From: Escherichia phage vB_EcoD_Teewinot | Length of the DNA: 41,800 bases | Reading direction: 5' to 3' (one strand) | Sequence record: NC_073053.1 | In this document: positions 11,377-22,884 of the stretch, in pieces | How positions within the stretch are numbered: position 1 is the stretch's first letter | Layout: every line of letters starts with the position of its first letter | Position numbers and translations under genes: made by a program | Notes under the pieces: model-generated | What the model was told of the DNA's origin: nothing | What the model saw: only the letters and a program-made list of their open reading frames with translations | Databases searched by the model: none

Positions 11377-14019
11377 ATGGCAGGTCAGGCAGCAGGCATC
11401 ACGCTAAAGGCTGATGTTGCACAAATCAGAACGGCAAATACTGTGCTGGACTCCTTCGCACAGAAATCCGAGAACACAGAAAACAAGGTTAAGAAATTAA
11501 ACGACACCCTCGGCAAATCCAAAAAGGTGACGAGTGACGCCGCGGGCGGAATGGAAAAGCTGGCAAACGAATCGCAGCGCGCCGCCGATGGCATGACGAA
11601 ACAGGAGCGACTCGCCAACAGGTTAGGCATGTCGACTAAAAACTTGGGCTTTGCCTCGCGTAACGCCGCATTCCAGTTACAGGATATCGCAGTTACGCTT
11701 GAGATGGGGATGCCGGTACACCGCGTTATGCTTCAGCAGTTACCGCAGCTAACTGGGGCGTTCGGTGGATTGGGTAACACTCTGCGTTATGTTGCTGGCT
11801 TCCTCGGTCCAGTTGGGATCGGCCTTGCTGCGGTAACGGCAACGTTAGGCGTGGGCGTAGCAATTACGTCCCGCGCAGAGAACCAGGTCGCAGCGCTTAA
11901 CAAGACGCTGGCGCTGTCAGGTAACATTTCCGGCCTAACGGCAAACCAGATCCTGGTGCTATCCGAGAACGCCGAGCGCATGGGCGGGTCGTTCCGCAAG
12001 ACGCGTGACACAATCCAGGCGCTGGCGGCGGCGGGTGTGAAAGCGGGGGCGGACTTCGGCCCGCTGGCGAAGGTTGTGAATGACTTCGCGAAGGCGTCTA
12101 ATCAGCCGATCCCTGACGTGGTTGAATCCATCTCAAAATTGTCGAACGACCCAGTGGGCGGACTGCGTGCGCTGGCGGATAAGTATCATGTCGTTACCGA
12201 GGCGCAGATCCAGCAGGTGCAATCGCTTGTAGATATGGGGCGTGAAACGGACGCGGTTGCTCTGGCTAACAAAACAGCCGCTGCGTCGTTCTCCAGCATG
12301 ACCGATGAGGTAAAGTCCAACATGGGTACGCTTGAGCGGTCGATGAACGTAGTTACATCGGCAGCTAAATCTATGTGGGATGCCATCCTGGATGTGGGCC
12401 GCGCGCAGTCCTCGAATGAGTCCGAGATGAAAGCGCGTGAGTCCTTGCAGCGCATGACCACGGCGTACTATGCCGAGATGAGGGCGGTAAACGCTGCCGG
12501 TGGGGTAATGACCGAAGCGCAGAAAGCGCGTATTAACATGCTTTACAGCGAACTGGTCGCCCAGGAAAAGGTAGTAGCGTCGCTCACCCTTCGCAACCGT
12601 GCCGAGCGAGACAGCGCCAGCGCCGCGGATGAAGCAGCAAAGGCGAACGAGGAGGCAAACCGCGCCGCCCGCGACCGCTCCGCGTTTGAGAAGGAGTACG
12701 CAACCAACGCGAAGCGGCGAGCCGACGAGATCGCCCGCCTAAATTTGCTGAATAAGCGCGGTGTTATTAACGAGAAAGAACTAGCCGAGGCGGTGAAGCA
12801 GGTCAACGAGCGTTACAAAGACCCCGCGCCGAAGAAAGCGGAGGCAGTTCGAGTCGATGCCGGGCTGAAAATGCTGGAAGTCGCGCGAAGCGAATTAGCC
12901 CAGCTTCGTGAGTCTGGAAAGCAGATCGAAGCCAACGCATCGACGCAGACCCGCACGCAACGCGCGCAAGCGTCCCTGAACAAGCTGATTGCCGATAATG
13001 AGCAGTTAATCACCGCGAGCAAGGAGCGCGCACTCACGGCAGCAGAAAAGCAGCAAACGGCGGCGTTCGAGGCGGTTAAATCGGTACGCGAGCAGATCGT
13101 CGAAGAAGCCAAATTGCTGGACGCGAAAGAGAAGCAGATCAAAGCACACGCCCAGGTCGATGCATTCATCAAGAACCAGAACGCCGAGCTAAAAGCCACC
13201 GCGGCGGGATATGCGCTTTCCACTCGCGAAGCGGCTAACCTGCGCGAAGAATTGCAGCTAATTGATCGCCTGAAGCGGGTGGGCGCTAACGATACCGATA
13301 TTGATCTGGCGGTGTCTAAGCTGCGCGAAGTGCAGGAAGCACAGACCGGTGCTAACGCCTCGCTATGGGATGGCTTCAGCCGCGGGCTTAAGGATAGTGT
13401 TGATGAAATGGGTAACGGCTATACGCAGATGACGTCACTCACAAAATTCACGTTCGGCGCTATGCAGGACACGATGAACGAGTTTTTCGAGACTGGCAAG
13501 CTGAACGCAAAAGATATGGTTAAGTCCATTCTGAGCGAATTAATAAAGCTGGCTACCTCGCAGGCGTTCAAGTCCATCGTTAGCGCTTTCGGCGGTGACG
13601 GCGGCAAAAACGGATTGTTCGGCGCTATTTTCTCCGGCCTCACTAAGAATGCGGACGGCGGAGCGTACGCAGGGGGCAACCTCGCGGCCTATTCGGGGCA
13701 AGTGGTAAGCCAGCCCACCTTTTTCAGTTATGGCGTCCAGGCGTTCGCTAAGGGCGCAGGATTGATGGGGGAGGCTGGCCCCGAGGCCATCATGCCGCTT
13801 AAGCGCGGGCCAGACGGTAAACTTGGCGTTGCCGCGGCAGGCGGTGTCGGGGGAATGATTGTAACGACCAACGTTAACATGGGGACCGGTAAGACGGATA
13901 CCAGTGTTAGCGGTCCAGACCCGCGCACCGCGCAGGCGTTCGGAAAGCAAATCACCGAGTCGGTCAAGGCCGAGATCGTGAAGGCGACGAAACCGGGTGG
14001 TGTACTTTACAAACGATGA
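11377..14019 (+). CDS. tail tape measure protein
   Basis: 880 aa, long helical A/Q/K/E-rich protein with glycine-rich C-terminal part, AAGGGGA RBS; located after the G/GT chaperone and before the tail tip genes. Confidence 0.85.
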   Translation: MAGQAAGITLKADVAQIRTANTVLDSFAQKSENTENKVKKLNDTLGKSKKVTSDAAGGMEKLANESQRAADGMTKQERLANRLGMSTKNLGFASRNAAFQLQDIAVTLEMGMPVHRVMLQQLPQLTGAFGGLGNTLRYVAGFLGPVGIGLAAVTATLGVGVAITSRAENQVAALNKTLALSGNISGLTANQILVLSENAERMGGSFRKTRDTIQALAAAGVKAGADFGPLAKVVNDFAKASNQPIPDVVESISKLSNDPVGGLRALADKYHVVTEAQIQQVQSLVDMGRETDAVALANKTAAASFSSMTDEVKSNMGTLERSMNVVTSAAKSMWDAILDVGRAQSSNESEMKARESLQRMTTAYYAEMRAVNAAGGVMTEAQKARINMLYSELVAQEKVVASLTLRNRAERDSASAADEAAKANEEANRAARDRSAFEKEYATNAKRRADEIARLNLLNKRGVINEKELAEAVKQVNERYKDPAPKKAEAVRVDAGLKMLEVARSELAQLRESGKQIEANASTQTRTQRAQASLNKLIADNEQLITASKERALTAAEKQQTAAFEAVKSVREQIVEEAKLLDAKEKQIKAHAQVDAFIKNQNAELKATAAGYALSTREAANLREELQLIDRLKRVGANDTDIDLAVSKLREVQEAQTGANASLWDGFSRGLKDSVDEMGNGYTQMTSLTKFTFGAMQDTMNEFFETGKLNAKDMVKSILSELIKLATSQAFKSIVSAFGGDGGKNGLFGAIFSGLTKNADGGAYAGGNLAAYSGQVVSQPTFFSYGVQAFAKGAGLMGEAGPEAIMPLKRGPDGKLGVAAAGGVGGMIVTTNVNMGTGKTDTSVSGPDPRTAQAFGKQITESVKAEIVKATKPGGVLYKR

Positions 14020-14028
14020 TAAAATGGC

Positions 14029-14054
14029 CCTCACTACAACGTGGGGGCTTTTTT
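14029..14054 (+). terminator. hairpin plus T-tract (attenuator-like) abutting the next start codon
   Basis: GGCCCTCAC-tacaac-GTGGGGGC (one mismatch) followed by TTTTTT, then ATG 14055 immediately; the only SD-like GGGGG is inside the stem. Confidence 0.35.
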
Positions 14055-14654
14055 ATGGCGCAAGGTACAATCACACTAACTAAGGGAAGTAAGACCATCA
14101 CAGGCGTGGGAACCGCGTTCTTGAGCGAGATCGGGAAGGTCCGCGTATTTACCCGCATCGACGGCAACGACTACACCGGAAAAATTGCGGCATTCAACTC
14201 TAACACCGTCATCACCCTGGCGGATAACTGGGCCGGACCGACAAAAGCCGGTGCAGCTTATGAGCTAATCGAAGCGCACGACCCGCGATCAAACGAATGG
14301 CCCTATTACTGGCACATGCAATTGCAAGGTGGCGGAGACGTGCAGTTGGCTTTCCGGTCCGAGGAATTGCAGTTTGGTAATGGCTACGGACAGAACATCG
14401 CGGACGGCCCGAACGCCGAAACGAAACAGTTCCCCGTGCAATTCGTCGGGCTGACTACGGACAAGTGGTGCAACCCTAAACTGGTTTACAACTTCCTTCG
14501 CGGGCACTTCGTCAAGCCGTTTGTCGTCACCGCGCCGGATGGCGAAACAGGTTTATTCGTGGTCGAGCGTTCGAGCTTGTCGTACACGGACAACGGACAC
14601 CTCACGGCAACCGTATCCGCCACCCTTAAGACTGCTATTGGATTCGTAAGATGA
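14055..14654 (+). CDS. minor tail protein (M position), fibre-like N-terminal domain
   Basis: 199 aa from ATG 14055 (MAQGTITLTKGSKTITGVGTAF...); the N-terminus is paralogous to that of the ORF at 21541. Confidence 0.5.
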   Translation: MAQGTITLTKGSKTITGVGTAFLSEIGKVRVFTRIDGNDYTGKIAAFNSNTVITLADNWAGPTKAGAAYELIEAHDPRSNEWPYYWHMQLQGGGDVQLAFRSEELQFGNGYGQNIADGPNAETKQFPVQFVGLTTDKWCNPKLVYNFLRGHFVKPFVVTAPDGETGLFVVERSSLSYTDNGHLTATVSATLKTAIGFVR

Positions 14655-15439
14655 ATAAACTTTATCGCGAGGCGACGCGCTTTGACCCATCGGGTCGCGT
14701 TCGCCTGATTCACATTGACGCGCAGGACGTGGAACCAGGCGACGGTGCGATCGGCGCGGGCCATCACTATTTCCACTACTGCTTTATTCCGCACACTGCC
14801 GAGGATATTGCTGCCGCCGGTGGTGACGAGGATAAGCTAAAACCTAAATCAATCTTCTTCGGCGGGCAGGAGTTCGAATTTTGGCCCTTCGATTTGTCCG
14901 GCCTTAACTTCTCCACATCGACGGCGGCAGAACCGCAACTAACAATCGTCGATATTGGCGGCATAATAACCCGGCTGTCGCTGAACCACGATCAGCTACT
15001 TGGCGCGAAGGTTGAGATCATTGATACGTTCGCGAAGTTCCTGGATAACGGGACAGATCCAGACCCGACGCAGAAACGAGTTCAGGAGTATTACATCGAC
15101 TCCCAGGTGGGCCGAAATCCGGGCAAGCAAATTACCTTCGCACTATCCTCGCCTGCGGATATGGAAGGGCAGGTCGTTCCCCGTCGCCAAATCATGAACA
15201 TGTGCGAATGGGCGCTCAACGGGAAGTACGCCAGCGGGGACGGGTGCACCTGGAACCTTGCGAAGCCTGGTATAAAGTATTATGACGAGCGAGGTAATGA
15301 AGTCATCGCGATGAACATGGACCGATGCGGCGGCTGTTTGTCAGACTGTTATCTTCGATTTGGGCAAGGGCTTGCGGACCCTAAAGCGGCGGTGCTGGAC
15401 TTCGGCGGCTTTCCGGGGTCCAGATTAATTAAGGGGTAG
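14651..15439 (+). CDS. minor tail protein L-like
   Basis: 262 aa; C-terminal cysteine cluster (C..C...CGGCLSDC), as in the Fe-S-binding C-terminus of lambda gpL; position after the M-position gene. Confidence 0.6.
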   Translation: MNKLYREATRFDPSGRVRLIHIDAQDVEPGDGAIGAGHHYFHYCFIPHTAEDIAAAGGDEDKLKPKSIFFGGQEFEFWPFDLSGLNFSTSTAAEPQLTIVDIGGIITRLSLNHDQLLGAKVEIIDTFAKFLDNGTDPDPTQKRVQEYYIDSQVGRNPGKQITFALSSPADMEGQVVPRRQIMNMCEWALNGKYASGDGCTWNLAKPGIKYYDERGNEVIAMNMDRCGGCLSDCYLRFGQGLADPKAAVLDFGGFPGSRLIKG

Positions 15440-15441
15440 TT

Positions 15442-16182
15442 ATGTTAACGAGAAAGGTTAAAAGCGATATCGCCGCACACGTTGCGGCGTGTCTGCCGGA
15501 AGAAGCCTGTGGGCTGGTCGTCATGGTGGGTCGTAAGCAAGTATTCGTACCATGTCAGAACGTATTCGAAGACCCGACCGGCGTGCGCTCCCGCAAAGAC
15601 GCTTTTACGATTAGTGATATGGCCTGGATGGATGCCGAGGATATGGGCGACGTCGTGCGCGTAGTCCACTCACACCCGGGTCAGCGCGAGTTAACCCCCT
15701 CACTGGGCGACGTTAACGGATGCAACGGCAGCGGCGTAGTGTGGACCATCACTAACGAATATGGCGACTTTATTGAGATTGACCCGGAAGACCCGCCGCT
15801 GGTAGGCCGCCGATTTGTTCTCGGAATTACGGATTGTTACGGCCTCGTCATGGACTGGCACAAAAAGCAGGGAGTAAATTTGCCAGACTTCCGCGTGCCG
15901 TATAACTGGTGGGAGACAGGCGAAAATCTGTATATGGATAACTGGTACGGCGCTGGATTCAGGGAATGCGAGGAGAATACGCCGGGGGCGATGGTCATCA
16001 TGCAGATTAGCGCGCCAGTGCCTAACCACGCCGGGATATTCCTTCCGGGCAACCAACTCCTACACCATATCTACGGCAGTCTGTCGAGCGTGATACCCTT
16101 CCGGTCAGGATTTTTCCGGGACAATGTGGTTAAATGGGTACGTCATAAAGACCTACCGGGGAATATAACAGAATGGCAATGA
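15442..16182 (+). CDS. tail assembly protein K-like (JAB/MPN plus NlpC/P60-type)
   Basis: 246 aa; VVHSHPGQRELTPSLGD resembles the JAMM metal-binding motif, offset by one residue; position between L-like and I-like genes. Confidence 0.65.
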   Translation: MLTRKVKSDIAAHVAACLPEEACGLVVMVGRKQVFVPCQNVFEDPTGVRSRKDAFTISDMAWMDAEDMGDVVRVVHSHPGQRELTPSLGDVNGCNGSGVVWTITNEYGDFIEIDPEDPPLVGRRFVLGITDCYGLVMDWHKKQGVNLPDFRVPYNWWETGENLYMDNWYGAGFRECEENTPGAMVIMQISAPVPNHAGIFLPGNQLLHHIYGSLSSVIPFRSGFFRDNVVKWVRHKDLPGNITEWQ

Positions 16183-16790
16183 CCACATTTAAATTATACG
16201 GCGTTTTAGGACGTCGATTCGGTAAAGTGCATAAGCTGGACTGCTTCACACCGGGCGAGGGTATCACCGGCCTGTGCGTGAAGTTACCCGGCTTACAGGA
16301 CTTTCTAATGTCGGCCCACCTGGACAATATGATGTTCAAGGTGCGCAAAGGCGACCACACGATGACCGGCTATGATGAGCTGGGCGAGTTCCACGGCAAC
16401 CGCGTAGTTACCATCGCGCCGGTTATGACGGGCGCAAAAAGCGGGTTGGGACAATTGCTGGCGGGTGTCGCGATCGTAGTGGCGTCGTTCTATACGGGCG
16501 GACTTGCTGCTGCCGCTTTCGGGGCTTCGGCTGCAACCGCTGCCGCTATCGGGACGGCGACGTTTTCGTTCGGGATGTCGATGGCGCTGGGTGGCGTTAT
16601 GCAATTGCTGTCGCCACAACCGAAAGGATTGCAGACAAGGCAGGACGTGGATAACAAAGCGTCGTACGCGTTCGGCGGGCCAGTGAATACAACAGCGCAA
16701 GGCACGGCGCTTGGTGTATTATGGGGCGAGCGTGAGATCGGCGGCGCTATTATTTCAGCCGGAATCGTAACCGAGGACTTGAACGAATGA
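16173..16790 (+). CDS. tail assembly protein I-like
   Basis: 205 aa with glycine/alanine-rich hydrophobic central segment, overlapping the K-like stop and the J-like start. Confidence 0.55.
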   Translation: MAMTTFKLYGVLGRRFGKVHKLDCFTPGEGITGLCVKLPGLQDFLMSAHLDNMMFKVRKGDHTMTGYDELGEFHGNRVVTIAPVMTGAKSGLGQLLAGVAIVVASFYTGGLAAAAFGASAATAAAIGTATFSFGMSMALGGVMQLLSPQPKGLQTRQDVDNKASYAFGGPVNTTAQGTALGVLWGEREIGGAIISAGIVTEDLNE

Positions 16791-19700
16791 CGATTATCTA
16801 CGACGTCACTGGGCATAAAGGCGGCGGCGGCAAACAGCACACCCCGCAGGAAACGCCGGATAGCCTGCATTCCCTGGCTAAAATCCGCATCTTGCTTGCG
16901 CTAGGGGAAGGGGAATTCGAAAGTATTACCAGCGCCAGCGAATTACGGCAGCGCGTATATCTGGACGGAACACCGATCCAGAACGCCGACCTATCGGAAA
17001 ACTTCCCCGGCGCGCGCGTGGAGTTCCGCCCCGGCACACAGCACCAGGATGTGATCCACGGATTTTCAGCGGTGGAAAGTGAGCAATCTGTCGGCGTAAA
17101 ACTGGAAAACGGTACGCCGTGGGTACGCCAGATTAACGATACCAGTCTGGACGCCGTTCGCATTCGCATCGGAATTCCGGCCCTGTACACTACCGAAGAT
17201 AATGGCGACCTGGTTGGCGGACGCATTGACTATAAGATCGTTGTGTATACGGATAACGCCGACCCGCGTGAGTTCAGATTCGCCGCCGTTGGTAAAACAA
17301 TATCGCTGTATGAGCGCGACCACCGCATCGAATTACCGCCGAACGTGAATACCGGCTGGCGCGTGGAGGTGCACCGCATAACGGCAGACTCCACATCGGC
17401 GAAAGTGGTTAATGATATCCGGGTGCAGTCCATCACTGAGATTATTGACGCCCGCCTGCGTTACCCGCTAACCGCGCTGTTGTTTGTGGAGTTCGACGCC
17501 AAAGCGTTCCAGAACATCCCGCGCGTGTCCATCAAGTGCAAAGGTCGCAAAGTTCTAATACCGAACAACTACGACCCGATCAATCATACCTATTCCGGGG
17601 ACTGGGACGGCACGTTTAAACGCGCATGGACGGATAACCCTGCGTGGCACTGGTACGATATTTGTATTACTGAGCGCTTCGGCCTCGGTCGGCGTATCAA
17701 ACCGCAAATGCTAAACCGATACGCGCTCTACCAGATTGCGCAGCGCTGCGATCAGTTGGTCAGCGACGGCAACGGTGGTCGAGAAATCCGCTTTAAGAAT
17801 GATATGTACATTCAGTCACAGACGGATGCCTGGACCGTGCTTAAGGATTTAGCCGCCATCTTCGCCGGAATGACCTGGTGGGGCAACCAGATGTTGAATA
17901 TCGTCAGTGACCAACCGGTCGCAGCAGTGTCGCACACTATCACCAACGCCTCGGTTATTGATGGGCGCTTCGACTACGCGTCCGGTAGCCAGAAAACTCG
18001 GTACTCCACGTTCGCAGTAGCATACGGCAACCCGAAGAACCACTATGAAGATGCTATCGCAACGGGGCAACGTGTCGAACTGGTACGCCGCCATAAGATT
18101 AACCGTCTCGATATTACGGCGATCGGCTGTACGCGTGAATCTGAAGCGCAGCGTCGCGGGCACTGGGCGCTAATTTCCAACCAGCTTGACCAGCAAGTTA
18201 GCTTTAAAGTTGGCATGGAAGGGTTATTCTTTATTCCCGGTAGCGTAGTCGCGATCGCGGATACAAACATTTCTGGCGGTTTTGAGACGCGCGGCGGTCG
18301 ACTGTTGTCGGACCCCGGAACTCGTACCGTGCTGAACACGGACAGCGAAATCACATTCCGCCCTGGCGATAAGTTCCTGGTACGCACCGATAGCGGTAAT
18401 GTGGAGACTCGCGAGATCGCCAGCGTCAACGGCAACAAGGTAACGCTAAAAACCGCACTGGACGCCAACCCTATTCCTGACCAGCCGTTTTGCGTTGATG
18501 GCGACGATATCCAGTTGCAGAAATTCCGCATCACCGACCTGGAGTATGACGACTCTACGAGCACTTTCTCGGTGCGCGGGATTGAGTACAACGATAGCAA
18601 GTATGATGCCGTTGATAATGGCGCGCGCCTTGATCCGGGTATCTTTACGCAAGTGCCTGACGGGGTAATGAAGGGGCCGGAATCCGTGACCATCACCCCG
18701 TCGCAGATTTCATCGCAAGGGCAGCTAATCACCAACGTGGATATTGTATTCCCTCCGGTGAAGGATGCCGTGGTGTATGAAATCCAGTGGAGGCGTACCA
18801 GCCTTCAGAATATGGAAATCCAGTGGGGTAACGACTGGGTGAATATCCCACGCACGGCGTCGAATGGGGCGCACATCCCTAACGTGTTCTCCGGTAACTA
18901 CCAGGCACGCGTCCGCGCGATCGGTATGGGCGAGATTTCATCTCCGTGGGTGTCGTCCGCCATCACGCCGGTGGAAGGTCGTCTCGGTGGGCTTAACGCA
19001 CCAATCATCACCAACGCTATTTCGGGCCTTCACCAGATCTTGTGGAAGTGGAACCACAACAACGCCGCTACTGATATCTCGTACACCGAGCTTGAAGTGC
19101 GCAAGACCGGTGAGACTGAATGGAAATTCCTTACCAACGTCCCATATCCGGGGGCGGAGTATGCGCAAACATCGCTGGAGTTCGGAATTTACCAGCAGTT
19201 GCGCGCCCGTGTAGCGGATAAAATCGGCAACCTGTCGGACTGGTCGGCCCCGTTTGAAGGGCAGGTGAGTGACAAAGTTGACGAGTACATGAAGGGGCTT
19301 GATAACGAGTTCTTGACTTCCGAGGATGGTAAACGCTTCCAGGAAGCAATCAACACGATCCCGCAGGGTATTTACGAGGCGATGCTCACCGACGCGCATC
19401 AATTGTTCAACGCCCGCGCCGAGTACAAGGGTATTTATGCGGAAATCTCGGTCGCGTATAACGTGGCGGCGGACGCCCACAAGGCGGTCTCTCAACTGGA
19501 GACGTTGATCGGCACGCGACTTGATGACGCGGAAGCTGCGATCCACACGTTGCAGACCGCGCAGAGCACACATGAACAAGCGTTCGCCCAGTACCAGCAA
19601 ACTGTTGCCGCTAAGTTCAGGGAACAGGAAGCCGCCATCCAGCAGGTACAAACGGCAACCGCAGACGTGGCGGGAGCGCTGGCGGAATATAAGACCCAGG

Positions 19701-20206
19701 TCGCTACACAGTTCGGTCAGCAGTCCGCCGCTATCGAGCAGAAGATGACGTCCTCGTTTAACCACTCTGGTGGTAGCGCCACGTATAGCCTTAAGGCTGG
19801 CGTGACATATAACGGGACTTATTATGATGCGGGTATGCAGCTTTCCGTTGTGACGTCTGGCAACGCGGTTAAATCGCGTATTGCGTTCAAGGCGGACCAG
19901 TTCTACATCATGCATCCGTCCAATGGGACGCTGTCGTCTGCGTTTATTGTGGACGGTGGCGCGGTGTATATCGACACGGCACGCATCAAGAACGCGTCCA
20001 TCAACTTCGCGCATATAACAGACACGCTGCAATCGAATAACTACGACGGCAGCACGCGCGGCTGGCGCTTAGGGAAAGATGGAACGTTTATCAACCTGGG
20101 CACCGGTAGCGGCGGCGGGATGAAACAGACGAACACAAGAATCAGCGTGAAGGACGGAAACGGCGTTCTCCGCGTGCAGATTGGTGAGCTTACTGGTAGC
20201 TGGTAG
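16787..20206 (+). CDS. central tail fibre / host specificity protein J-like
   Basis: 1139 aa, by far the largest ORF; follows the M/L/K/I-like genes in lambda order. C-terminal third is Q/A-rich helical then a probable receptor-binding region. Confidence 0.8.
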   Translation: MTIIYDVTGHKGGGGKQHTPQETPDSLHSLAKIRILLALGEGEFESITSASELRQRVYLDGTPIQNADLSENFPGARVEFRPGTQHQDVIHGFSAVESEQSVGVKLENGTPWVRQINDTSLDAVRIRIGIPALYTTEDNGDLVGGRIDYKIVVYTDNADPREFRFAAVGKTISLYERDHRIELPPNVNTGWRVEVHRITADSTSAKVVNDIRVQSITEIIDARLRYPLTALLFVEFDAKAFQNIPRVSIKCKGRKVLIPNNYDPINHTYSGDWDGTFKRAWTDNPAWHWYDICITERFGLGRRIKPQMLNRYALYQIAQRCDQLVSDGNGGREIRFKNDMYIQSQTDAWTVLKDLAAIFAGMTWWGNQMLNIVSDQPVAAVSHTITNASVIDGRFDYASGSQKTRYSTFAVAYGNPKNHYEDAIATGQRVELVRRHKINRLDITAIGCTRESEAQRRGHWALISNQLDQQVSFKVGMEGLFFIPGSVVAIADTNISGGFETRGGRLLSDPGTRTVLNTDSEITFRPGDKFLVRTDSGNVETREIASVNGNKVTLKTALDANPIPDQPFCVDGDDIQLQKFRITDLEYDDSTSTFSVRGIEYNDSKYDAVDNGARLDPGIFTQVPDGVMKGPESVTITPSQISSQGQLITNVDIVFPPVKDAVVYEIQWRRTSLQNMEIQWGNDWVNIPRTASNGAHIPNVFSGNYQARVRAIGMGEISSPWVSSAITPVEGRLGGLNAPIITNAISGLHQILWKWNHNNAATDISYTELEVRKTGETEWKFLTNVPYPGAEYAQTSLEFGIYQQLRARVADKIGNLSDWSAPFEGQVSDKVDEYMKGLDNEFLTSEDGKRFQEAINTIPQGIYEAMLTDAHQLFNARAEYKGIYAEISVAYNVAADAHKAVSQLETLIGTRLDDAEAAIHTLQTAQSTHEQAFAQYQQTVAAKFREQEAAIQQVQTATADVAGALAEYKTQVATQFGQQSAAIEQKMTSSFNHSGGSATYSLKAGVTYNGTYYDAGMQLSVVTSGNAVKSRIAFKADQFYIMHPSNGTLSSAFIVDGGAVYIDTARIKNASINFAHITDTLQSNNYDGSTRGWRLGKDGTFINLGTGSGGGMKQTNTRISVKDGNGVLRVQIGELTGSW

Positions 20207-20242: not shown

Positions 20243-20545
20243 ATGGCATTCGGTATCGCAACGTGGGACGAGCAAGGACGCCCAAACAACTACGGCATTA
20301 AACCGGTAAGCGTGATCGGAAGGATTCATCTTGCGGAAGGACAAAAATCAGGCGCATGGTCATTCCCTGTACCGGCGGGGATGAAGGTCGGATACGTGGT
20401 CGCACTGGATAACGGCGCGGTCGGGCCAGGCCGCAGAATAACCGCCAGCGGGAACACTATCACGGTTTCCGCGGCAAGTGCGGTAGGTGGCGGGGTTTAC
20501 TCCGCATCTGAATGTGACGTTATTGTTTTTGTGGAGCGAGCATAA
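20243..20545 (+). CDS. hypothetical tail-associated protein
   Basis: 100 aa ORF with GAGG RBS after the J-gene terminator. Confidence 0.45.
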   Translation: MAFGIATWDEQGRPNNYGIKPVSVIGRIHLAEGQKSGAWSFPVPAGMKVGYVVALDNGAVGPGRRITASGNTITVSAASAVGGGVYSASECDVIVFVERA

Positions 20546-21219
20546 TGGCTAATTACGGCGCGTTGATTGACTTACCAAACGGCAACCCGTTTATCACACC
20601 AGAATCGACGCCGTTTTGTCTATTCCGCCGTGTGGTTGTTGGGTCTTCGGCTAACGGCACTATGCAGTCGGCGGCTGCCGATATTAATTTGGGTGGTGAC
20701 TACCCTGCAATAGCGTTTGTGAAAACTACGCACACCGCCCAGCCGACCGTCGTAGGGTCTTCTCGCGTTGGTAATGTGGTGAAGGTGAGCGCCAGCAATC
20801 CATTCGGGCAAGGCTTCACGATGACGGCTTACATCTTTGCCATATTCCCACAGACCCTTCCGCGGTGGGGCTTCGCTATTTGGGATAAGACGGGGAAGCT
20901 AGTGCTTACTAATGAGAGTCGCGTACTAAGCGATTTAGTTACCGTCGGATCGCCAGGCGCTAACGGGGGGATTAACATTGACCAGACGCTAAATGGCAGC
21001 TACGCCGTCGCTCCGGGCATATTGGGGTCTACGCTGATCCGGTTTTTTGTGCAGGGCCAGCCGCAAGTAATATCGATAACGGCGTACACGGGGGCCAGAT
21101 TTGATGGGTCGCGAACGCGTATATCGGCAGCGTCGGCGGGGAGAGCCACGGGGGGTGTGGTGGGGTATACTAACAACGGCAACGCGATTATGGCGATTAA
21201 CACGGCCAATTATGATTGA
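20545..21219 (+). CDS. hypothetical tail fibre accessory protein
   Basis: 224 aa ORF, start overlaps the previous stop (TAATG), glycine-rich; followed by a bidirectional terminator. Confidence 0.5.
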   Translation: MANYGALIDLPNGNPFITPESTPFCLFRRVVVGSSANGTMQSAAADINLGGDYPAIAFVKTTHTAQPTVVGSSRVGNVVKVSASNPFGQGFTMTAYIFAIFPQTLPRWGFAIWDKTGKLVLTNESRVLSDLVTVGSPGANGGINIDQTLNGSYAVAPGILGSTLIRFFVQGQPQVISITAYTGARFDGSRTRISAASAGRATGGVVGYTNNGNAIMAINTANYD

Positions 21220-21221
21220 AG

Positions 21222-21245
21222 AAAATCCCCTTTCGGGGATTATTC
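21222..21245. terminator. bidirectional terminator between convergent genes
   Basis: ATCCCC-tttc-GGGGAT flanked by an A-run on one side and T-rich sequence on the other; sits between the + gene ending 21219 and the - gene ending 21240. Confidence 0.55.
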
Positions 21246-21458
21246 GCAGGTGGTGTTTTTGAAATGGTCTACCGACACGTACTGGAAGCTAAACGGATAA
21301 CCCGCCCTTAGCATTTTATGCCCGGAGAAGTCCGCAACACCATACACAGGGACCACATAATCCATGCCGCTATTCTGGTATGTGGCGTCGCAGACTTTAG
21401 CGGGCATGTCGGCACAACCTGACAAAAGAACCGCACAAATCATAATTAAAGTTTTCAT
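21240..21458 (-). CDS. small lipoprotein (candidate Cor-like superinfection exclusion protein)
   Basis: 72 aa, signal peptide with lipobox (AVLLSG-C), GAGGA RBS, own promoter; only minus-strand gene inside the tail gene block. Confidence 0.55.
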   Translation of the reverse strand: MKTLIMICAVLLSGCADMPAKVCDATYQNSGMDYVVPVYGVADFSGHKMLRAGYPFSFQYVSVDHFKNTTCE

Positions 21459-21491
21459 GGTATCATCCTCTATATATTTGGTTGAGTTTTA

Positions 21492-21519
21492 GTATTACAC
21501 CGCTCAACCAGGATTGCAA
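21492..21519 (-). promoter_or_regulatory. sigma70-like promoter for the lipoprotein gene
   Basis: On the minus strand: ATTGGTTGCAA supplies -35 TTGCAA (21519-21514), 16-bp spacer, -10 TAATAC (21497-21492). Confidence 0.4.
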
Positions 21520-21540
21520 CCAATTTATGGGGATTTAGCT

Positions 21541-22281
21541 ATGGCAGCGGGTACGCTATCCGTAACGAACAATAGCACGGCGGTAGTAGGAGTCGGCACA
21601 ACGTTTACCGCGTTTAAAGCTGGCGACTTCTTAACGCTGGTGGTAGGACAAGTGCCTTACACAGTGGCGATCGCATCAATCGAAAGTAACACGGCGCTTA
21701 CGCTGGTGTTGCCGTTCGACGGCCCAACGGCAACCGGCCTTGCTTGGGATGGTGTTAAGCGCGATACCATGTCGCTGGCAACGATGGGCGTTACCGTACA
21801 GGCACAGAAAGCGTTGCGATTGATGATTGCAGATGAAAACAACTGGCGTGCGATCTTCGGCGACGCTGAAGAAATTACCGTGACGTTACCTAACGGGCAA
21901 GTCATGCAGGGTATGTCATGGGGCTATCTGTCGAAATTGCTTAAGAACGTAGATCTGGTTGAGATGCGCGACCTCGCAGCGCAAGCCGAAGCATCAAAAT
22001 TGGCAGCGCAGGGATTCCGCGATCAGGCTGAGGAGTGGGCCCGCCAGCGCTTCGGTATTATCGCCGAGGAAGCGGAGCTAATTGCGCCGCAGTACGTTAA
22101 ACACCACGAGTTCCCGATCGAGGATATTCTCGACGAAGACGGCAACAAGATCGGGGAGAAGATGACGGACCGCCCATCCATCGACGTTAACCCGATCGTA
22201 ATGGACTTGATGGGATGTGTTCAATATCTCAATAAGCAGGTGGAGGAGTTGAAGGCCGAGATCGCGGCGTTGAAGAAATAA
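21541..22281 (+). CDS. tail fibre-like protein with C-terminal coiled coil
   Basis: ATG 21541 (the track start at 21514 is a TTG inside the promoter motif); N-terminus MAAGTLSVTNNSTAVVGVGTTF... is paralogous to the ORF at 14055; C-terminus ends in a heptad-like EELKAEIAALKK. Confidence 0.5.
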   Translation: MAAGTLSVTNNSTAVVGVGTTFTAFKAGDFLTLVVGQVPYTVAIASIESNTALTLVLPFDGPTATGLAWDGVKRDTMSLATMGVTVQAQKALRLMIADENNWRAIFGDAEEITVTLPNGQVMQGMSWGYLSKLLKNVDLVEMRDLAAQAEASKLAAQGFRDQAEEWARQRFGIIAEEAELIAPQYVKHHEFPIEDILDEDGNKIGEKMTDRPSIDVNPIVMDLMGCVQYLNKQVEELKAEIAALKK

Positions 22282-22288
22282 ATAGAAG

Positions 22289-22310
22289 GGGCCATACGGC
22301 CCCTTTTTCT
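22289..22310. terminator. bidirectional terminator between convergent blocks
   Basis: GGGGCC-atac-GGCCCC with an A-run upstream and T-run downstream; separates the plus-strand late block from the minus-strand block. Confidence 0.6.
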
Positions 22311-22884
22311 AGTTTGAGTTTTCCCAGGCCATTTTGCGCCGCACCAACGGGCTTTCGTAATACTCCTTTCCCTCCACTTCCACTAAGGGCCAGTCATTAA
22401 CAATGACGTATGGTTCCGCGATATCTTCAATAACGCCGTGCGCGCTTTGTGGCCCGAACGATACGCCCACCAGGATAACACCGGCAACTCTACGGGTGAG
22501 ATACTCGCGAGCGCAACGTGCTTCCACCAATCCGCGACGGATGCCGCTGGTGGCCTTAACCTCGTAGGTCCAGACGGCATCGATCACATGCTCGCGGAAG
22601 TCGGGGCCGGATTTAACCTTGCGCTTACCGACCATGATGATATCGCCGCGGTCGATGGTATTGGCGCTGAACAAGCCGGTACGCATGAGCAAGCCTTGCG
22701 GGATACAACTGCGCCCGCCTGCGTGCCCTTCTAGGTACATGCCCGCAAACATTTCGCCCAGCACACCGACCAGTCGGCTTTGCTTGCACGAGTCGGACGT
22801 TAAGCGCCATTGATCAAACTCGATGCTTGCTATCATTGCCGCCAGGTGGAATTGTTTACCTGATATTTCATATTCGCCGTACAT
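22309..22884 (-). CDS. hypothetical protein, possible PD-(D/E)xK nuclease
   Basis: 191 aa; contains GPDFREHVIDAVWTYEVK, i.e. a literal PD...ExK arrangement. Function is inference only. Confidence 0.4.
   Translation of the reverse strand: MYGEYEISGKQFHLAAMIASIEFDQWRLTSDSCKQSRLVGVLGEMFAGMYLEGHAGGRSCIPQGLLMRTGLFSANTIDRGDIIMVGKRKVKSGPDFREHVIDAVWTYEVKATSGIRRGLVEARCAREYLTRRVAGVILVGVSFGPQSAHGVIEDIAEPYVIVNDWPLVEVEGKEYYESPLVRRKMAWENSN

Follow-up and report, generated by a model that had tools for sequence, protein, structure and literature searches.

Genes and features of the tail-tip locus

The stretch of DNA analysed here (hereinafter the window) comprises 41,800 nucleotides of Escherichia phage vB_EcoD_Teewinot (NC_073053.1), and the open reading frames and Pfam matches around the locus under study identify it as the lambda-like tail-tip module of a Dhillonvirus (Table 1). 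Over about 10 kb, this region shows 92–98% DNA identity to Dhillonvirus Escherichia phages, including Opt212, JLBYU37, Envy, and GeorgBuechner/Bas16 (156 records). Two of its genes concern us, both of which are present where the initial annotation placed them (14055–14654, 199 aa, and 21541–22281, 246 aa). The first encodes the protein described there as occupying the 'M position', an assignment that agrees with its identification as a distal tail protein (DTP) of the lambda gpM type, the ring protein between tail tube and tail tip: its gene lies between those for the tape measure and gpL, as expected for a DTP, and its residues 86–192 match PF05939 (lambda gpM/Phage_min_tail) with 44.6 bits, the gathering cut-off being 39. 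Its core also matches structurally proven DTPs, namely T1 gp37 (9l9p_H, E 4.7e-12) and the F2-pyocin DTP (25vf_6, E 0.11), and the protein as a whole, hereinafter gpM, matches phrog_9922 end to end. The second gene encodes a lateral tail fibre, which matches the tail fibre family phrog_1980 and whose orthologues are annotated as 'lateral tail fiber protein' or 'tail fiber'.

Table 1. Coordinates of genes and protein features in the tail-tip region of the window, with the basis of each assignment.
Feature	Coordinates	Strand	Basis
Tape measure gene	11377-14019	+	PF06791, PF09718
Possible alternative upstream start of gpM	14016..14054	+	ATG overlapping tape measure stop (ATGA)
DTP gene, lambda gpM homologue with N-terminal extension, 199 aa	14055..14654	+	ORF, PF05939, phrog_9922, 23gd_B
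gpM N-terminal beta-barrel, aa 1-73, module common to fibre	14055..14273	+	AF2, BLASTP, 25ve_A match, BFVD
gpM linker from barrel to DTP core, aa 74-85	14274..14309	+	pLDDT drops to 51-79 past residue 73
DTP core, tail-tube-like fold, aa 86-199	14310..14651	+	PF05939, T1 gp37 match
gpL	14651-15439	+	PF05100
gpK	15442-16182	+	Prok-JAB (PF14464), NlpC/P60 (PF00877)
gpI	16173-16790	+	position
gpJ central fibre	16787..20206	+	PF24801, PF13550, PF09327
gpJ helix-rich shaft, putative fibre-anchor docking site, ~aa 830-990	19274-19756	+	inferred from pyocin structures
Two small ORFs (100 and 224 aa)	20243-20545, 20545-21219	+	no family match
cor	21240-21458	-	name from relatives
Lateral tail fibre gene (246 aa), allele with internal deletion	21541..22281	+	ORF, phrog_1980, name from relatives
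Fibre N-terminal beta-barrel, anchor domain, aa 1-72	21541..21756	+	AF2 pLDDT 89-97, PyoF13 profile match
Fibre stem helix, absent from gpM, aa 74-107	21760..21861	+	AF2 pLDDT about 90
Deletion junction, in-frame 1425 nt (475 codons) versus Opt212-type fibre	22028..22045	+	EEWA/RQRF
C-terminal Peptidase_S74 intramolecular-chaperone remnant, N-terminal part with Ser606/Lys611 motif gone	22042..22278	+	DT57C match

A near-identical protein already has a deposited structure: the chain 23gd_B, named 'Distal tail protein gp20', is ~98% identical to gpM across all 199 residues. This PDB entry represents a BASEL-type Dhillonvirus tail tip, in which gp20 is accompanied by gp21 and a 'J-like tail tip protein gp24', with the gpL and gpJ orthologues present; a search of PDB sequences with the fibre as query matched no fibre chain in it. 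The entry was not returned by our Foldseek search of the PDB (to April 2026), and a literature search found no paper on it. Three candidate sources were set aside: the Avs-1 'gp20/gp21' paper concerns an unrelated Aeromonas phage, the Oekolampad paper deals with the receptor-binding protein only, and the Frontiers paper on Dhillonvirus says nothing of the DTP. The start of gpM could also lie further upstream: an in-frame ATG at 14016 shares bases with the stop codon of the tape measure gene, and initiation there would lengthen the protein by 13 residues. The main database cluster, P0003 (212 aa), adopts this upstream start; the ATG at 14055, preceded at a distance of 7 nt by a G-rich stretch, is the one chosen in the PDB entry and in most annotations.

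Alignment of the window's fibre to those of Opt212 (721 aa) and Bas16 (600 aa) shows that it is an Opt212-type allele minus an exact, in-frame 1425 nt (475 codons), and the ends of the deletion share an imperfect 11-nt microhomology (GAGGAGTGGGC versus GATGAGCAGGC). The C-terminal remnant matches residues 965–1073 of the DT57C fibre (8hqz_d, E 1.4e-31). Opt212 matches PF13884 at residues 607–662 and has the S606/K611 motif; a PF13884 scan of the window's fibre gave no match, and the deletion, which takes the region up to residue 642, leaves it without a complete Peptidase_S74 domain and its Ser/Lys cleavage motif. The deletion takes away shaft, receptor-binding part, and the beginning of Peptidase_S74, and what is left is an anchor stub. 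The allele recalls those laboratory variants of lambda, T5, and T1 that are without fibres, and none of 50,697 phage genomes had a record covering at least 80% of positions 21300–22400.

The barrel family and fibre attachment

The initial annotation had proposed that gpM and the fibre share an N-terminal segment of about 70 residues followed by different C-termini, and both parts of this proposal hold. BLASTP aligns residues 1–70 of each protein (14055–14264 and 21541–21750) with 27/71 identities (38%), 54% positives, 2 gaps, and an E-value of 8e-9; the similarity ends at about residue 72, beyond which the two are unrelated, the PF05939 core of gpM having no counterpart in the rest of the fibre. 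Since G, T, V, and A are abundant in both segments, one might ask if these are simply two Gly/Thr/Val-rich N-termini that resemble each other by chance or composition. This is vanishingly improbable, and we reject it on three grounds. First, the Smith-Waterman score of the N-terminal 80 residues is 105, as against 27.6 +/- 5.1 in 5000 composition-keeping shuffles (z = 15), with 0/5000 reaching the observed score and a Gumbel P of about 2e-9. Second, searches with profiles agree with the pairwise result, the two barrels cross-matching each other's PHROG family; further, a phmmer search of all PDB sequences with the fibre recovers residues 1–73 of the gpM orthologue 23gd_B (E 3e-5). Third, the predicted strand order is identical: AlphaFold2 (AF2), run on a 98-sequence alignment, models gpM residues 1–83 as a six-stranded beta-barrel (pLDDT 87.8) with strands at 4–8, 14–18, 28–35, 38–47, 52–55, and 64–73, and the fibre barrel follows the same order.

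This barrel belongs to a family of side-fibre N-termini. By itself gpM matches residues 6–81 of the F2-pyocin side fibre (25ve_A, PyoF13) with an E-value of 0.003, and a profile of 98 barrels, of which five are from gpM, matches residues 5–111 of that chain with an E-value of 3.7e-30. The gpM barrel likewise matches the N-termini of phrog_1980, phrog_28473, and phrog_17834 (E 1e-14 to 1e-18) and those of fibre models in BFVD (TM 0.65–0.89). In searches with tblastn, PHROG, and BFVD, the barrel was located N-terminally in the side fibres of ES18 (gp33), HK225, the N15 gp25 type, Midgardsormr38, Rtp and other T1-like phages, Edwardsiella phage eiAU, and Pseudomonas phages, as well as in some tailspike-like enzymes. 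The window's fibre is a member of the group formed by the N15 gp25, ES18 gp33, HK225, and T1- and Rtp-type fibre N-termini, to which the gpM barrel is 39–45% identical and structurally similar (TM 0.65–0.84), and the order of genes after J (two small ORFs, cor, and the fibre) is the same in those phages; they differ in that their own gpM, of ~115 aa, has no barrel. When both window proteins and a set of family members were scanned with Pfam and NCBIfam, no model covered the barrel. The hitherto unannotated first 75 residues of the Dhillonvirus DTP gain a name and a family. As regards the depth of these searches, a two-sequence profile run against a database of 5.8 billion proteins recovered two fragments only, the matches apparently being confined to proteins of about the query's length; with a seven-sequence profile run against the same database, the best 120 of 153 matches were all partial or short, and we used them for alignment and not for architectures.

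The function of the fibre copy can be approached through the F-type pyocins (PyoF13/PA0643/PA0646; PDB 25ve, 25vj), which combine the same barrel family with a homologous tail tip. Their structures reveal three fibre trimers seated on a kinked, acidic coiled-coil stretch of the central-fibre shaft (PMC13455828, PMC12874032, bioRxiv 10.64898/2026.02.24.707460), with the barrel, named the 'OB domain' by the authors, and the stem helix clamping each trimer onto this gpJ-like shaft. Two protomers out of the three in each trimer contribute their barrels to a ring, in which they associate laterally (bioRxiv 10.64898/2026.02.24.707460). The window's fibre has the corresponding elements: a stem helix of 34 residues follows the barrel within the fibre-anchor profile, of which positions 2–119 align to PyoF13 residues 5–111, and residues 73–130 are 88–100% identical among eight Dhillonvirus-type fibres and 60% identical in the more distant L004. 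The G-D loop before strand 3, conserved at 97–98% in 93 fibre barrels, lies next to the residue that aligns with PyoF13 R30, a contact of the central-fibre shaft; the window's fibre retains G28-D29 and G36, as well as K26, which aligns with R30. Homology to the F-pyocin side-fibre N-domain identifies the fibre barrel as an attachment domain. The BASEL study found the far 5' end to be the only conserved part of the lateral fibre gene in its siphophages and proposed it as the site of virion attachment (PMC8594841); the barrel shared by the two window proteins is this conserved 5' end. Of the earlier suggestion of an attachment module on two tail proteins, then, the shared module stands, as does its attachment role in fibres, but the same role for gpM is not supported, for reasons considered below.

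The gpM copy has retained the fold and ~15 of ~20 near-invariant positions of the fibre barrels, with V29-R30 (or L/F) in place of G-D and D36 in place of G36. AF2 and Pfam concur that it is followed not by a stem helix but by a linker of ~12 residues leading into the DTP core, and short gpM homologues begin at the position of this linker (MA..(W/Y)PY(Y/W)W). The pyocin barrel is found on the N-terminus of a trimeric fibre, has a stem helix, binds a coiled coil, and coexists with a plain DTP of 113 aa, whereas one copy in the window stands on the DTP itself, with neither stem nor G-D loop.

Beyond fibres, the family links the 5' ends of side-fibre genes in small coliphages and F-type pyocins to SU10-type adaptors and long tandem-repeat proteins. 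Two copies of the barrel are found in proteins of ~350–380 aa (P0137, P0142, P0143, P0146, P0158, P0162, P0165, P0169, and P0193), and the SU10-type head-to-tail adaptor domain (PF24175, above threshold) was detected in 7/10 two-barrel proteins tested, making this adaptor another ring-forming virion protein to which the barrel is fused. Tandem arrays of 9–12 copies occur in P0134, P0136, P0270, and P0163, and of four to six copies in other proteins of 1.0–2.4 kaa such as P0135, P0144, and P0231; P0134, the sole tandem-barrel protein scanned for this, also contains PKD domains.

Distribution and divergence of the gpM fusion

Decorated DTPs, the structure of the fibre-anchor family in pyocins, and the deposited coordinates of a near-identical protein were already available; what is new is the rare fusion of a barrel of the fibre-anchor family to a DTP, the homology of which is solid. 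Among 1.84 billion cluster representatives scanned with phmmer, a single one (P0003) matches gpM residues 1–199, and the other DTP matches, of 94–125 aa (nearly all 112–125), cover residues 81–199 only. The fusion is therefore confined to one 50%-identity cluster among 1.84e9 representatives. The nearest non-fused DTPs are of 122–125 aa and 57–67% identical in the core. In the phage collection searched, the fusion occurs in 156/156 records of Dhillonvirus-type phages. We sought a second DTP fusion among ~200-aa proteins with an N-terminal barrel, and the candidates P0265, P0161, P0168, and P0186 proved to be without PF05939.

The relationship between the two barrels is old. A codon alignment of the two segments shows 51% nucleotide identity, falling to 30% at third positions, and a longest common word of 8 nt, values that speak against a recent duplication or gene conversion. 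That both copies reside in one genome and begin with M-A-x-G-T could otherwise be taken to indicate that the 5' end of one gene was recently copied onto the other within the genome, with no separate function as yet. Such an origin is highly improbable and is rejected on these divergence figures; moreover, the gpM barrel has more in common with barrels from unrelated fibres (up to 50% identity) than with that of the resident fibre (35–38%), and the fusion has been kept throughout the Dhillonvirus records with dN/dS below 1. More specifically, dN/dS is 0.09–0.69 in the gpM barrel versus 0.02–0.06 in the core, and one lineage displays a burst of amino-acid replacements in the barrel with dS unchanged. 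Purifying selection acts on the barrel, but in relaxed form, the core being far more tightly constrained.

Two metagenomic sister phages, L005 and L006, can be compared with the window. Their tails are nearly identical to that of the window in the tape measure (92%), gpK (98%), gpI (99%), and gpJ (98%), and their fibre anchors (aa 1–130) are 93–100% identical to the window's, yet their gpM has 123 aa and no barrel. Merely 35 nt separate the stop of the tape measure gene from the start of gpM in these phages, leaving no room for a barrel. The core of their gpM is only ~65% identical, as against 92–99% for the flanking tail genes, and their gpL (L005:10362-11609, L006:6133-7380) measures 415 aa versus 262, with a 153-residue insertion past residue 57 that is related to residues 502–617 of the 'Megatron protein' 8gtc_M (E 1.7e-4). 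This pattern of identities looks like that of a swapped gpM/gpL cassette. The more distant L004 has neither the gpM barrel nor the gpL insertion. The tube/tip junction thus varies among near-identical tails, which bear a gpM barrel, a gpL insertion, or neither; this argues that the junction carries exchangeable, dispensable decorations, and the three states offer a ready comparison set for the function of such decorations.

Plain gpM proteins of ~115 aa also coexist with barrel-anchored fibres in N15-, HK225-, ES18-, Midgardsormr38-, and F-pyocin-type systems, and a plain gpM is combined with such a fibre in L004 as well. Within Dhillonvirus, identity of the P0005 lineage to the window is only 71% in the gpM barrel, as against 94–100% in the fibre anchor, 99% in gpJ, and 98% in the gpM core; the gpM barrel and the fibre anchor hence do not co-vary, and the two are independent of each other.

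Position and possible roles of the gpM barrel

The position of the barrel on the tail can be predicted from the lambda system. The PF05939 alignment begins at W86, which corresponds to lambda gpM W6 in the alignment of the short homologues. In Ur-lambda, K2 and W6 of gpM lie on the outer surface and touch a 12-mer collar of Stf N-domains at the gpV/gpM junction (PMC12617516). As W86 is equivalent to W6, a barrel placed ~12 residues upstream should lie outside the ring, at the height of the collar and in six copies, a location that we infer from this equivalence and not from the coordinates of 23gd. The Ur-lambda Stf N-domain dodecamer, as well as T5 p132 and DT57C LtfC, surround the gpV/gpM junction with rings of small beta domains, and the gpM barrel would be tethered equivalently. 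Those collars consist of 12 copies of separate Ig-like proteins or fibre domains, in contrast to the window, where six domains of another fold family would be supplied in cis.

We accordingly favour, at roughly even odds (about 0.5), the reading that the gpM barrel is a built-in collar or decoration on the DTP ring with an accessory role, either in weak contact with the host surface or in stabilisation of the junction. The fusion may represent an old, lineage-specific co-option, in which a barrel of the fibre-anchor family was joined to the DTP N-terminus through the ~12-residue linker and kept its fold as the stem and the G-D loop were lost. Tethered a few residues ahead of the Trp equivalent to lambda gpM W6, which lies on the outer surface where tube and tip meet, six such barrels would line the exterior of the DTP ring where Ur-lambda has its side-fibre collar, and could there touch the host surface weakly during adsorption or stabilise the tube/tip junction. 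The exchangeability of the junction decorations is easier to reconcile with an accessory domain such as those of T5 pb9 (an OB-fold domain), JBD30 gp49 (two OB domains), and 'evolved' Dit proteins (carbohydrate-binding modules) than with a conserved socket. By analogy with these, which likewise place small beta domains at the periphery of a DTP ring, the gpM barrel probably works as such a decoration, although the window's extra domain is N-terminal, rather than inserted or C-terminal, and is homologous to a fibre anchor; its structural match to T5 pb9 is weak (Foldseek probability 0.38–0.44, TM about 0.4). A glycan-binding or adhesion role could be proposed purely by analogy, given that the barrel family binds protein, in the form of a coiled coil, and not glycan in every solved case.

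Against the decoration reading stands the fact that DTPs often serve as docking platforms, as in Sf11, Avs-1, JBD30, and monocin, and its main rival is an auxiliary contact between the gpM barrel and the fibre, to which we give a minor share of the probability. In its fuller form, likewise a minority possibility, the six gpM barrels would constitute a platform for the lateral fibres, with pseudo-homotypic barrel–barrel contacts building a mixed collar around the DTP ring out of these six and a further six, which three fibre trimers would contribute at two per trimer in the manner of the pyocin. The common domain family of gpM and fibre, the pyocin ring made from two of three protomers per trimer, the collars of 12 small domains that anchor fibres at the same position in Ur-lambda and T5, and the DTP extensions on which spikes or fibres dock in Sf11, Avs-1, and JBD30 are all consistent with such a platform. 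To these may be added the SU10-type adaptors with barrels: the SU10 adaptor ring is the docking site of its long fibres (PMC9509320), and barrels inside such adaptors keep the docking idea for gpM alive. However, the L005/L006 pair shares the fibre anchor and gpJ with the window and dispenses with the gpM barrel; L004, the N15-like phages, ES18, and the pyocins all make do with a plain gpM; the gpM barrel and the fibre anchor do not co-vary; the former has neither G-D loop nor stem; and the homologous anchor binds the central-fibre shaft, not the DTP, in three pyocin structures. Comparative evidence from these genomes indicates that the gpM barrel is unnecessary for fibre docking. The fibre-docking domain that the initial annotation had envisaged on the M-position protein is thus not supported, and the lateral fibre is probably held by a socket other than the gpM barrel, a point that counsels caution against using this barrel as one in phage engineering.

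A related proposal, which we consider doubtful, is that the gpM barrel is a DTP-borne mimic of the fibre anchor that recruits the lateral fibres to the tube/tip junction in a mixed 6 + 6 collar; in the sister phages the same fibre would then have to dock elsewhere or fill the collar alone. If true, it would represent an undescribed mode of side-fibre attachment, in which a socket evolved from a copy of its plug.

The site suggested by the pyocins for the Dhillonvirus fibre is instead the gpJ shaft. The gpJ protein matches the F2-pyocin central fibre 25vf_A with an E-value of 7e-222, its C-terminal part aligning with residues 977–1187, and gpL matches the pyocin tail tip with an E-value of 1e-29. 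By this homology the fibre would dock on the helix-rich shaft of gpJ. The docking kink of the pyocin central fibre (aa 950–961) falls between aligned blocks when sought in Dhillonvirus gpJ, so that the shaft remains a putative docking site. The gpJ shaft is rich in Ala, Gln, and Glu and has a likely helix break, I-P-Q-G, near residues 858–861 with acidic flanks; this is reminiscent of the acidic docking kink of the pyocin, although the pyocin segment does not align there.

The gpM barrel might alternatively act in assembly, binding either the final ring of the tail tube or the tape measure and chaperone system during tail initiation and being inactive in the mature virion. [quoted passage not shown] We regard it as improbable: the sister phages, whose tape measure is 92% identical and whose tube genes are the same, build their tails with no such barrel, six barrels would seem too large for the lumen of the tube, and the relaxed, lineage-specific change of amino acids in the barrel ill suits a conserved assembly contact.

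A further variable region of these tails is the slot after gpJ, which in the Dhillonvirus-type phages compared (the window, Ioannina, and L004/L005/L011) holds one of two alternative modules. The window has two ORFs on the plus strand, coding for 100 and 224 aa (20243–21219), and Ioannina, L004, and L005 have minus-strand DUF6453 and lipoprotein genes; the choice between the modules is independent of the presence of the gpM barrel.
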